From a virus, in the IMG/VR virus record IMGVR_UViG_3300030104_002421, positions 64,001 to 128,000 of that record: a stretch of DNA of 64,000 nucleotides; one strand, 5' to 3'. Position numbers and translations under genes: made by a program. The first letter of the stretch is position 1; every line of letters begins with the position of its first letter. Positions 43,285-53,996 of this stretch are shown piece by piece. The notes under the pieces were generated by a model. The model was not told the origin of the DNA, made no database searches, and saw only the letters and a list, made by a program, of their open reading frames with translations.

Positions 43285-43511
43285 TGATTGACGATATTAA
43301 ATTGATTGAAAGAATGGACAAACTTATAGAGTTAGGTGAAGATCCAAACTATACTGCTGAACAAAACTTAATGTATGTTATGGGTGCTTGTCGTGGCATA
43401 CAAAGAAATGCTGAGAGAAGAATTGAAGAACATGAAAAAGCATATGCACCAAAACCATTAAAAAGAGGCACAGGTTTAAGTGGTGTAAGAGGGCGAGGTT
43501 TAAATGCCTAA
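43284..43511 (+). CDS. Hypothetical early protein
   Basis: RBS GGAG; coupled. Confidence 0.55.
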   Translation: MIDDIKLIERMDKLIELGEDPNYTAEQNLMYVMGACRGIQRNAERRIEEHEKAYAPKPLKRGTGLSGVRGRGLNA

Positions 43512-43725
43512 TTTTGATTACGACCAATTTATGAAAACAGATATAGTAAACTATGACGACCTAGATAGCGCTGTTAGACAAGTAATCACAGACGCTTTTA
43601 CGAAAATGGAGAATGCTATTGACCATTTTAATGAGAAAAACCAAGATGATATAGAAGTAGATACTGTTGATTTATCTAGTAAATTTGACAGTATATATGA
43701 CTATGTTGACGATTATATAGATTAG
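43504..43725 (+). CDS. Very acidic small protein
   Basis: Asp-rich 73 aa; RBS GAGG. Confidence 0.55.
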   Translation: MPNFDYDQFMKTDIVNYDDLDSAVRQVITDAFTKMENAIDHFNEKNQDDIEVDTVDLSSKFDSIYDYVDDYID

Positions 43726-43727
43726 GC

Positions 43728-43756
43728 TTGACATTTATATCAAAATATGATAGGAT
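43728..43756 (+). promoter_or_regulatory. Sigma70-type promoter (leaderless start at 43764)
   Basis: TTGACA-N17-TAGGAT, ATG 7 nt downstream. Confidence 0.7.
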
Positions 43757-43763
43757 ACAGACA

Positions 43764-44126
43764 ATGGCATTAATTTATACACATAACAGTTCACCAAGAC
43801 GCTTCAAGCGTGTTGTAAAGAACAAGAAATATTATGAAGCGCTTGCTGAGAGAGACAAGTTATTGAGACGATTAGGTATTGACCCCAACAGAAAGATACC
43901 AAAATACAGACCAGAGAAAATGAAAATACATACTGCCCCTGTGGCTCAATTGGTAGAGCAGACGATTTGTAATCGTCAGGTTGCAAGTTCAAGTCCTGCC
44001 GGGGGCACCAAACCTGTTTCTAATTGGCGATTAGAAGAAAGCAAAAAGTTTACTGTAGCACCTGCTTATAATAAAGGTGCATATCAAGTAATAACAAAAG
44101 AAAACATAAAGGATATAGGCAAATGA
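43764..44126 (+). CDS. Conserved phage protein (PAYNKG motif) containing an in-frame tRNA
   Basis: Open frame through the tRNA; C-terminal TVAPAYNKGAYQVI..DIGK; stop coupled to the next gene. Confidence 0.7.
   Translation: MALIYTHNSSPRRFKRVVKNKKYYEALAERDKLLRRLGIDPNRKIPKYRPEKMKIHTAPVAQLVEQTICNRQVASSSPAGGTKPVSNWRLEESKKFTVAPAYNKGAYQVITKENIKDIGK
43935..44010 (+). tRNA. tRNA-Thr(UGU) with encoded CCA
   Basis: Acceptor GCCCCTG/CGGGGGC, D stem GCTC/GAGC, anticodon stem GACGA/TCGTC with loop TT-TGT-AA, T loop TTCAAGT, ACCA end; 76 nt; one T-stem mismatch. Confidence 0.93.
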
Positions 44127-44437
44127 TTAGAATATTAACAATAGTATCTCTTATTGCATGGGGTGTATTTTTTTATACGAGTGCAAAAGCAAATGAATAT
44201 ACAGAAGCAGTTGTTGGTCATGTTATACAAAACCATGATAAGATTGACCATAGTGCTTTGTTACAAGCAGAGTTAACAAGACTAGCACATAGAAATAGTA
44301 TTGACTTAATAAACATTTTACAAGATTATCTCCCTGCTATACTTGATGGTATAGCGGCGGATTTAAGACAAAAATCAGACTTGGAGTATAAGTGCTCACT
44401 TCAACCTGATAATTATAAAAACAACGAGTGCAAATAG
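44123..44437 (+). CDS. Secreted hypothetical protein
   Basis: Signal peptide ending AKA; C-terminal Cys pair. Confidence 0.6.
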   Translation: MIRILTIVSLIAWGVFFYTSAKANEYTEAVVGHVIQNHDKIDHSALLQAELTRLAHRNSIDLINILQDYLPAILDGIAADLRQKSDLEYKCSLQPDNYKNNECK

Positions 44438-44447
44438 AGGATAGATT

Positions 44448-44753
44448 ATGGCGAAAATGAATAAACAAGCAATGATGGAAAATATGTTAACCATGCCGGA
44501 TATTATGAAAGAGTTTCATACTTATAAAACTGGCAAACAAAAGGCAAAATATTTAAGAGAAATGGGTACATTAAATTTACCACATGCTGTTAATTGGGAA
44601 AATTTAGCACAATGTTGGGAAGGCACGAAAAAGTGGCCAGCAAAGAAAACTATGGATGAAGATGATACTATACTAAAAGATTATCTGGATCCTGTAGGTG
44701 AAACAAATGCAGAAAAATCATTAACCATGCAGGAATTGGATGCGCTACTTTAG
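44448..44753 (+). CDS. Hypothetical protein
   Basis: RBS GAGG; 101 aa. Confidence 0.55.
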   Translation: MAKMNKQAMMENMLTMPDIMKEFHTYKTGKQKAKYLREMGTLNLPHAVNWENLAQCWEGTKKWPAKKTMDEDDTILKDYLDPVGETNAEKSLTMQELDALL

Positions 44754-45084
44754 TATACCATTATTATTTCTGACAATTGGGTGTGGTTCTATGAGTGATA
44801 GAACAATACATGCTACTGCTTTTGTTGACCATTTGAACAATATGCCATCAGGTAAATCTAGTTATTTACTATGGCATAATCCAAATACAGGTAACAAAGG
44901 CGATATCAAAGTTACGAGAAGTTATCTAGTAAAAGGTATCAAATGTGCCGACTATACAAGTACAGTTGATATACAAGATAGCTGGCCTTTGAATGGTATA
45001 GGTTCTTTAGATAGAAGTACGGAACATGGTACAGCATGTCAATTACCAGACGGTAGATGGAAGATTATAGAGAGGGTATTATGA
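44740..45084 (+). CDS. Lipoprotein, 17-kDa surface-antigen-like domain
   Basis: Lipobox IG-C; W.NPNTGNKG, C..Y, GTACQLPDGRW. Confidence 0.75.
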   Translation: MRYFSIPLLFLTIGCGSMSDRTIHATAFVDHLNNMPSGKSSYLLWHNPNTGNKGDIKVTRSYLVKGIKCADYTSTVDIQDSWPLNGIGSLDRSTEHGTACQLPDGRWKIIERVL

Positions 45085-53414: not shown

Positions 53415-53799
53415 AGAACTATCATTGTTAGTATTTTTACTAACATTTATTATAATTGTTTCAGTATGGACAACATCAGCAGCTGCTGAAGGACCAAAGT
53501 ATGATTTATCAAAAATGAAGCAGAGACAAGTACCTGCTTATTGTGGAGATACTGGGTTTATGTTTGAAACATCATTAGAATTATTTAATGAATTACCAAT
53601 TGCAGGTGCTGAAGTTAGAACGGCAGGAATGCCAGATGCTCCAATCATAGGTATCATTACTCTAACTTATAACGAAGATAGAGGTTCAGGTACTGTAATG
53701 ATGACTATACCAGCAATAGGCGAGACATGTGTTCTAGCATATGGTATGAATTGGCAATTTTATAACGAAATTCATGTTGAAGGTAATGAGAGTAAATAG
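53401..53799 (+). CDS. Secreted hypothetical protein
   Basis: Signal peptide; CG...TCVLA.G Cys pair. Confidence 0.55.
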   Translation: MKKIKELSLLVFLLTFIIIVSVWTTSAAAEGPKYDLSKMKQRQVPAYCGDTGFMFETSLELFNELPIAGAEVRTAGMPDAPIIGIITLTYNEDRGSGTVMMTIPAIGETCVLAYGMNWQFYNEIHVEGNESK

Positions 53800-53996
53800 T
53801 ATGGACGGCGGGGCAGTACCGCCCACCTCCACCACAGACACGGGGGTGAAATAGGTTCGACAGCTATTAGAAATCGTGCTGGAGTGGATAGTCCAAAGAC
53901 TTAAAACTAAAATAAAAGCAAACTTTAATGAGTATGCATTAGCAGCGTAGGCTGTTAGGGGTTTGCCTTGTACCTTGCAACAGAAACAAGGCACCA
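53790..53996 (+). ncRNA. ssrA: Circularly permuted two-piece tmRNA, alphaproteobacterial type
   Basis: Acceptor piece GGACGGCGG-GGCAGTA-CCGCC-CACCTCCACCA ends 53834; 7-nt spacer; coding piece starts GGGGGTGAAATAGGTTCGAC at 53842; G3-U70 pair; tag ANFNEYALAA* at 53918-53950; outer ends approximate. Confidence 0.9.

Follow-up and report, generated by a model that had tools for sequence, protein, structure and literature searches.

A predicted tRNA-Thr(UGU) nested in frame in the linker of a small protein gene of pelagimyophages

Can one stretch of DNA carry a working transfer RNA (tRNA) and, on the same strand and in frame, the middle of a protein that is itself under selection? The question is raised by a locus in a stretch of viral DNA of 64,000 nucleotides (nt), hereafter the window, which spans positions 64,001 to 128,000 of IMG/VR record IMGVR_UViG_3300030104_002421. 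The record has 146,188 bases (146 kb) and is rated 99% complete; the virus is a SAR11-type marine phage, a pelagimyophage. An earlier reading made from the letters alone (the sequence-only reading) had described a complete tRNA-Thr(UGU) inside an open reading frame (ORF) that stays open across it, and had proposed that the tRNA occupies the variable linker of a real protein. We consider it probable that the locus is dual-coded in this way, with a working tRNA-Thr(UGU) nested in frame, on the same strand, in a disordered linker of an early protein that is small and basic. The features on which the argument turns are these, in window coordinates:

43764-44126, + strand: host ORF from the ORF list, with its ATG at 43764, 120 codons and a TGA stop (44124-44126).
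43764-43886, + strand: conserved N-terminal part, residues 1-41, with MAxIYT, a basic stretch and a helix (21-36) ending in LGID, delimited by alignments.
43887-43934, + strand: variable linker 5' of the tRNA, residues 42-57, with unalignable, length-variable columns and a predicted local distance difference test score (pLDDT) of ~50.
43935-44010, + strand: tRNA-Thr(UGU), 76 nt with an encoded CCA, found by ARAGORN (tgt) and Rfam RF00005.
44010-44123, + strand: conserved C-terminal domain, residues 83-120, KPxxNWRLEESKxFTVAPAYNKGAYQVI..IKDIGK, delimited by alignments, a phrog_4593 match and the ratio of nonsynonymous to synonymous substitution rates (dN/dS).
Residues 96-111 of the product: predicted beta-hairpin in the C-terminal domain.

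The tRNA is recovered by both programs where the sequence-only reading had placed it, on the coding strand of the open ORF. It scores 68.2 bits against RF00005 (cutoff 29 bits, E 6e-14) and keeps the canonical U8, G18G19, T-loop, 7-nt anticodon loop, discriminator and CCA. It is the sole tRNA of the 146-kb record, and ACA, the codon matching its UGU anticodon, is the commonest Thr codon in the long ORFs of the window, with 58% of all Thr codons. The host frame reads the tRNA in phase 0, the only phase in which it is free of stops. Base 1 of the tRNA is position 1 of a codon, residues 58-82 read APVAQLVEQTICNRQVASSSPAGGT, and the codon of Lys83 starts with the last A of CCA; the 3' end of the tRNA, GGGGGCACCA, encodes a Gly-Gly-Thr that is conserved in the protein family. 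The linker at 43887-43934 would double as the 5' leader of the pre-tRNA. In the minimum free energy fold of 43895-44050, the acceptor and D arms are formed and the full cloverleaf is not (z -1.3), as is usual for an unmodified tRNA. Just 3' of the tRNA, an 8-bp hairpin (UUCUAAUU-GGC-GAUUAGAA; 44017-44038, + strand) lies within the conserved NWRLEE codons and is possibly incidental.

Is the surrounding ORF a real gene? By alignment, we assign it to a family of small pelagimyophage proteins, the 'APAYNKG' family, which has ~520 confirmed IMG/VR loci and 1491 clusters in a metagenome protein collection, and whose C-terminal signature is GGTKP..NW..ES..APAYNKGxYQVI..DIG. The PAYNKGAYQVI..DIG motif, which the sequence-only reading had ascribed to a conserved T4-like phage family, is the hallmark of this one. 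The product of the window ORF is small and basic (isoelectric point, pI, 10.2). It joins an N-terminal MAxIYT-basic-helix-LG part to a C-terminal GTKP..NW..ES..F/YT.APAYNKG.Y.V...IKDIG domain, both under purifying selection. Full-length homologues were found with tblastn in two cultured Pelagibacter phages, gp171 of HTVC008M (49% identity over 100% of gp171) and Mosig_00174 of Mosig (44% identity), both annotated as hypothetical proteins. In an alignment of these three proteins, two conserved parts are separated by ~35 unalignable residues; the N-terminal part shares the pattern MAxIYT..RR.K...K.Y..ALA...K.L...G and the C-terminal part shares GGTKP..W R.E.SK.FT.APAYNKG.Y.VI.K..IK..G. The corresponding DNA alignment shows wobble at third codon positions in the conserved parts.

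Searches with the host protein returned PHROG families of unknown function only; among them, phrog_4593 matches residues 92-120 of the window ORF and 35/48 family members. Pfam gave sub-threshold matches only, the best match of a sequence-profile search of the PDB was uL30 (E 0.19), the ESM Atlas gave no usable match, and a Foldseek search of the PDB with an AlphaFold2 (AF2) model found nothing at E <= 0.001. The AF2 model, built with 48 relatives, has an overall pLDDT of 65. It contains a confident helix at residues 21-36 (pLDDT 87-91), a C-terminal beta-hairpin and a low-confidence middle, with a pLDDT of ~50 over the tRNA-coded part. Tryptic peptides of the full-length 120-amino-acid (aa) product would include IHTAPVAQLVEQTICNR and QVASSSPAGGTKPVSNWR.

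How general is the arrangement? We inspected ~95 of the ~520 IMG/VR loci, the 80 best and 15 more divergent ones, chosen by protein similarity; a query with the single protein L073 came to 3 loci only. Among the 80 best loci, the window and the two isolates, 37 loci carry a coding-strand tRNA inside the ORF. Twenty-four of these 37 have a 76-nt tRNA-Thr(UGU) read in phase 0, and the other 13 have a tRNA-Asp(GUC) of one of three kinds (77 nt in phase 0, 76 nt in phase 0 and 76 nt in phase 1). Among the divergent members there are also tRNA-Pro(UGG), tRNA-Glu(UUC) and further forms of tRNA-Asp, one of 78 nt read in phase 1 and one of 77 nt read in phase 2; some of these tRNAs lie near the N-terminus. 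Thus a Thr, Asp, Glu or Pro tRNA stands in the linker of about half of the loci examined, and each of the three reading phases occurs. Comparison of the loci presents the linker as a slot that holds a Thr, Asp, Glu or Pro tRNA, or none, in related phages. At L257, a tRNA-Asp (905-979) lies 15 nt upstream of the ORF (994-1332) and not inside it, an un-nested version of the association.

The frame is kept in every case. It is open from the N-terminal to the C-terminal motif in 44/44 nested cases, with no stops or frameshifts, and the region is open throughout in all 80 + 15 related loci. In the first set, the spacing of the tRNA from the N-terminal and C-terminal anchors falls into 17 junction layouts, in each of which the two distances sum to a multiple of 3. 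The phase used is free of stops in each of at least eight tRNA classes, and most classes have no other such phase. In protein clusters from independent assemblies, the tRNA-Thr-coded peptide is joined to the C-terminal domain in 88/120.

Part of this openness is a property of the tRNA itself. We assembled 72 unrelated phage tRNA-Thr(UGU) genes, found via the anticodon arm, as a control set. Phase 0 is stop-free in 62/72 of them, and phases 1 and 2 in 0/72, so an open frame inside the tRNA is intrinsic. The tRNA-coded peptide (residues 52-90, window 43917-44033) also matches phrog_23857 (E 7e-4) and, in tblastn, translated free-standing tRNA-Thr genes of Klebsiella, Enterobacter, Erwinia and Streptomyces phages; such 'protein families' and matches are, at least in part, translated tRNA genes. 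Both facts lend something to the view that the ORF is a chance open frame over a tRNA, or that a tRNA insertion killed the gene and left it to decay, for they show how a tRNA can mimic a protein. What they do not reach is the flanks. Frames of at least 90 nt are open on both sides of the tRNA in 1/72 control genes, and a search that started from the tRNA recovered seven family loci, of which 7/7 are read through. The in-frame join of a tRNA to two conserved protein domains is not intrinsic, and chance does not explain it.

The flanks further evolve as protein. Median dN/dS in the C-terminal domain is 0.148 for tRNA-bearing and 0.144 for tRNA-less members, and when the N- and C-terminal parts are taken together, dN/dS is below 1 in 100% of pairwise comparisons. 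No in-frame ATG, GTG or TTG lies between the end of the tRNA and the C-terminal domain in the window or in 27/32 distinct tRNA-bearing genes; the selected C-terminal domain would therefore be made only by translation through the tRNA. With flank dN/dS of 0.15-0.5 (0.15 in the C-terminal domain, 0.3-0.5 in the N-terminal part), 44/44 tRNA-bearing loci in frame across 17 or more layouts and three phases, and a C-terminal domain without a start of its own, a shadow ORF or a decaying gene is extremely improbable, a reading that these comparisons already contradict. The sequence-only reading had likewise judged a shadow ORF unlikely, and its placement of the tRNA in the variable linker of a real protein agrees with homologues that have and lack the tRNA and conserve both flanks.

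The tRNA layer bears its own marks of selection. Across 11 distinct nested tRNA-Thr, pairing is kept in 95.7% of stem cells and 10/21 pairs have changed on both sides; 0/500 shuffles reach such covariation, and slid controls are 33-54% paired. Invariant among them are G1-C72, C2-G71, the whole anticodon loop and ACCA, which we take to include identity elements of threonyl-tRNA synthetase (ThrRS). In the tRNA segment, the three codon positions have taken up similar numbers of substitutions (253/242/318), and the ratio of nonsynonymous to synonymous polymorphism (pN/pS) is ~0.6. This pattern indicates that the segment evolves as RNA, that the 25 encoded residues are weakly constrained and that the peptide is largely a by-product. 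Taken over both layers, the substitution patterns indicate that tRNA and protein are maintained by selection on the same DNA.

Several points tell against a dual-coded locus with two working products. The T stem of the window tRNA has one A-C mismatch in the Rfam model. The host-gene loci of HTVC008M and Mosig have no tRNA, so that the cultured isolates, and with them any laboratory system, lack the nesting. Median dN/dS in the N-terminal part is higher with a tRNA (0.50) than without one (0.32). The evidence is comparative throughout, and the either/or fate of the transcript proposed below is inferred from general RNase P and RNase E biology and from a model put forward by Mukai for the bacterial selB/selC locus. 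The search that started from the tRNA and the inclusion of loci with partial matches lessen, and do not remove, the bias of selecting loci by similarity.

If the linker is a slot, how is it filled? On a tree of the flanks, the presence of a tRNA needs at least nine gains or losses, and the five states need 13 changes. Locus L020 (Thr) and locus L030 (Asp) have flanks that are 87% identical, and the tRNA-less L041 clusters with the latter. Other pairs have tRNAs far closer than their flanks, with 93% against 56% identity for L011-L013 and 96% against 55% for L026-L017, whereas L011-L022 are 82% identical in the tRNA and 80% in the flanks. The exact tRNA-coded peptide of the window is joined in metagenome clusters to an L003-type N-terminal part (P0006) or C-terminal part (P0004). 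The histories of tRNA and flanks disagree, and the slot has therefore been reshuffled by recombination, that is, by cassette exchange; the exchange probably ran by homologous recombination via the tRNA and the conserved flanks. P0004, P0006 and P0007 are mosaic alleles that combine the tRNA-coded peptide of the window with L003-like parts, with breakpoints apparently at or near the tRNA.

Two junction types were seen at the 3' side of the slot. In the window, L003 and L026, the tRNA 3' end (GGxGGCACCA) itself encodes the conserved Gly-Gly-Thr of the family; in the other layouts, 2-10 residues separate the tRNA from the protein's own (G)GTKP. The two layouts fit an in-frame deletion between these similar sequences. 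We also looked for decayed tRNAs in linkers without one. The linker of L038 aligns with tRNA-Thr at 24/41 positions in MAFFT; in local alignment against the nested tRNAs it gives a z of 0.6, not above shuffles, and the best of any tRNA-less linker reaches a z of 2.7.

How would one transcript serve both products? The sequence-only reading had given the ORF its own promoter and a stop coupled to the next gene, and had suggested that one transcript yields either protein or tRNA, so that tRNA maturation would be an mRNA-destroying switch that could also release downstream lipoprotein cistrons. Such a switch would follow from what is known of RNase P. The relevant features are:

43728-43756, + strand: sigma-70-type early promoter, with TTGACA (43728-43733), a 17-nt spacer and an extended -10 element TG-a-TAGGAT (43748-43756).
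44123-44437, + strand: next cistron, 104 aa, with a signal peptide and no lipobox; its ATG overlaps the last codon and the stop of the host ORF.
44740-45084, + strand: lipobox ORF (LTIGC), at the position of HTVC008M gp173, a 'putative outer membrane protein'.

No other promoter-like site on the + strand of 43400-44600 ranks as high as this one, with 10/12 consensus matches and the TG present; its region is conserved with HTVC008M. Among the 68 relatives with enough upstream DNA, TTGAC(A/T)-N17-(TG)nTAnnAT stands 5-11 nt before the start codon in 29 and within 70 nt in 39. Between the ATG at 43764 and the tRNA, we found no further + strand promoter-like site and no terminator-like site. Because the ATG lies only 7 nt past the -10 element, the messenger RNA (mRNA) of the host ORF is probably leaderless or nearly so. 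Upstream of L003-L082, ~30/68 relatives have a -10 element that ends 5-11 nt before the start and show no visible Shine-Dalgarno sequence. The closeness of the -10 element and the lack of that sequence imply that the early mRNAs of this family are leaderless or near-leaderless in these relatives too. The L017, L022, L045 and Mosig-type lineages have no such promoter, and there the host gene is coupled to an upstream ORF.

The coupling was borne out as an ATGA overlap of the host stop and the next start at 44123-44126. The naming of the downstream cistrons held for one of the two: the second, at 44740-45084, has a lipobox, and the first, at 44123-44437, has a signal peptide without one. Five metatranscriptome runs cover small shares of the region; the contigs from four of them, placed on the locus, are few and read-sized, and none bridges the 5' end of the tRNA. 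One RNA-library contig of 151 nt (43987-44137) spans the 3' boundary of the tRNA; only 24 of its nt lie within the tRNA, short of a 31-nt rule, and it may stem from DNA carry-over. Another of 151 nt (43624-43774, run X17) runs from the putative promoter into the start of the ORF and could reflect upstream read-through transcription or DNA carry-over.

We suggest that the early promoter would give rise to one, probably leaderless, transcript with two exclusive fates. Ribosomes that keep the tRNA region unfolded would make the 120-aa protein and, by coupling, translate the downstream cistron. Where the cloverleaf folds instead, RNase P and 3' processing would free the phage's only tRNA, which would decode ACA, and the same cuts would leave a 5' fragment of the message that lacks a stop and a 3' fragment that lacks a start. 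Pelagimyophage genes are spaced by ~21-25 bp on average (PMC7029224, Table 1). With so little room between genes, in-frame nesting would allow a tRNA to be carried while translational coupling stays intact.

The same transcript invites another reading, in which the cloverleaf is an element of mRNA processing or stability, an RNase P 'punctuation' mark that separates or tunes cistrons, with the protein as the main product and no decoding tRNA. The host gene does head a coupled set of small cistrons, and the interchange of Thr, Asp, Glu, Pro or no tRNA at the slot fits a role that is independent of the amino acid. An element that served only for cleavage could do without an intact anticodon arm, however, and the nested tRNAs keep all canonical features, including an invariant anticodon loop, the discriminator and the encoded CCA; their invariant positions presumably include the textbook ThrRS identity pairs. 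The window tRNA is moreover the only one in its genome and reads the commonest Thr codon of the phage. We therefore regard a pure processing element as very unlikely.

Does the protein act on its tRNA? A functional tie, by which the protein binds, chaperones, protects or regulates the tRNA as SelB does tRNA-Sec, would explain why tRNAs land in this gene again and again. At least five kinds of tRNA are found at at least three positions within one small family, the tRNA-Asp of L257 precedes the ORF by 15 nt, the protein is strongly basic (pI 10.2), and the published precedent couples a tRNA with its own binding factor. Yet about half of the family, both cultured phages included, has no tRNA in the gene, and the genome of HTVC008M has no tRNA at all; constraint on the C-terminal domain is equal with and without a tRNA, and Pfam, PDB-profile, ESM Atlas and Foldseek searches recognised no RNA-binding family or fold. 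Such a tie is quite unlikely in our view. A broader proposal joins it to the exchange described above: the linker would be a dedicated 'tRNA slot', exchangeable by recombination with the flanks and the tRNA as homology arms, and the basic protein would work with whichever tRNA it carries, for example by setting the ratio of tRNA to protein through translation versus folding, or by protecting or delivering the tRNA. Were this combined proposal true, gene and tRNA would form one regulatory module and not a tolerated insertion; we hold it to be unlikely, and continue with the nested, dual-coded locus as the preferred reading.

A permuted (two-piece, alphaproteobacterial-type) transfer-messenger RNA (tmRNA) lies elsewhere in the window, at 53731-53995 on the + strand, with the tag ANFNEYALAA (RF04321, 98 bits; RF01849, 75 bits), and has homologues in HTVC008M, Mosig and one further IMG/VR relative. 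We considered it as a dedicated rescuer of the non-stop fragments and rejected the idea: HTVC008M and Mosig have the tmRNA and no nested tRNA, so it is not specific to nesting. The permuted tmRNA is a general pelagimyophage feature, independent of the nested tRNA. The word tmRNA is absent from the 2020 paper on pelagimyophage genomics (PMC7029224), which gives 0-2 tRNAs per genome and leaves nesting unmentioned.

How does the locus compare with known systems? Large phages, T4, T5 and others, have their tRNA genes in intergenic clusters, and the thrU-tyrU-glyT-thrT-tufB operon of E. coli is a co-transcript of tRNAs and an mRNA. The phage locus resembles these in that a tRNA for a frequent phage codon would be made from an early-type promoter, on one transcript with protein genes, from which RNase P and 3' processing would free it. 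It differs in that their tRNAs lie between ORFs, whereas here the tRNA is coding sequence between selected domains.

Full-text searches of the literature found no phage example of a nested tRNA, and nothing beyond the bacterial case of Mukai (2021, Int J Mol Sci 22:4605, PMC8124441), a bioinformatic prediction that selC, the gene for tRNA-Sec, is nested in the selB ORF of Alphaproteobacteria. Mukai presents it as the first case of a tRNA nested within a bacterial ORF; among published cases it is the closest. In both systems, a whole tRNA lies on the coding strand within an ORF and is translated into peptide, the stop of the ORF overlaps the next start, and the frame is kept across relatives, some of which have no nesting. 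In the proposed models of both, folding and processing of the tRNA leave a non-stop mRNA and shut off the protein. The two differ in where the tRNA sits: in selB/selC it forms a C-terminal extension that no conserved domain follows, and in the phage it lies between two conserved parts. Read-through would therefore be needed for the selected C-terminal domain of the phage protein, unlike in selB/selC. They differ further in that selB/selC has one fixed tRNA tied functionally to the host protein, whereas the phage family has Thr, Asp, Glu, Pro or none, in three phases and with cassette exchange. The phage case is also set in a virus, and its nested tRNA is the only one of the genome. Finally, a tRNA remnant is documented for the bacterial locus; in the phage family none was demonstrated.

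What would such a locus mean? Annotation pipelines forbid overlap of a tRNA with a protein gene and drop one of the two; here, selection on both is evident. Databases are affected too, since some of their 'protein families' are partly translated tRNAs, as the PHROG match of the tRNA-coded peptide illustrates. The sole published bacterial precedent, selB/selC, is a C-terminal extension. The phage family would be an extreme form of dual coding, in which a tRNA serves as an internal protein linker, with interchangeable identities and in all three phases. It would also offer a natural system in which translation competes with RNA folding and processing on one transcript. The viruses concerned are abundant in the ocean, public viromes contain hundreds of family loci, and the arrangement bears on how streamlined genomes may add RNA genes without intergenic space and on how phages may exchange tRNAs.

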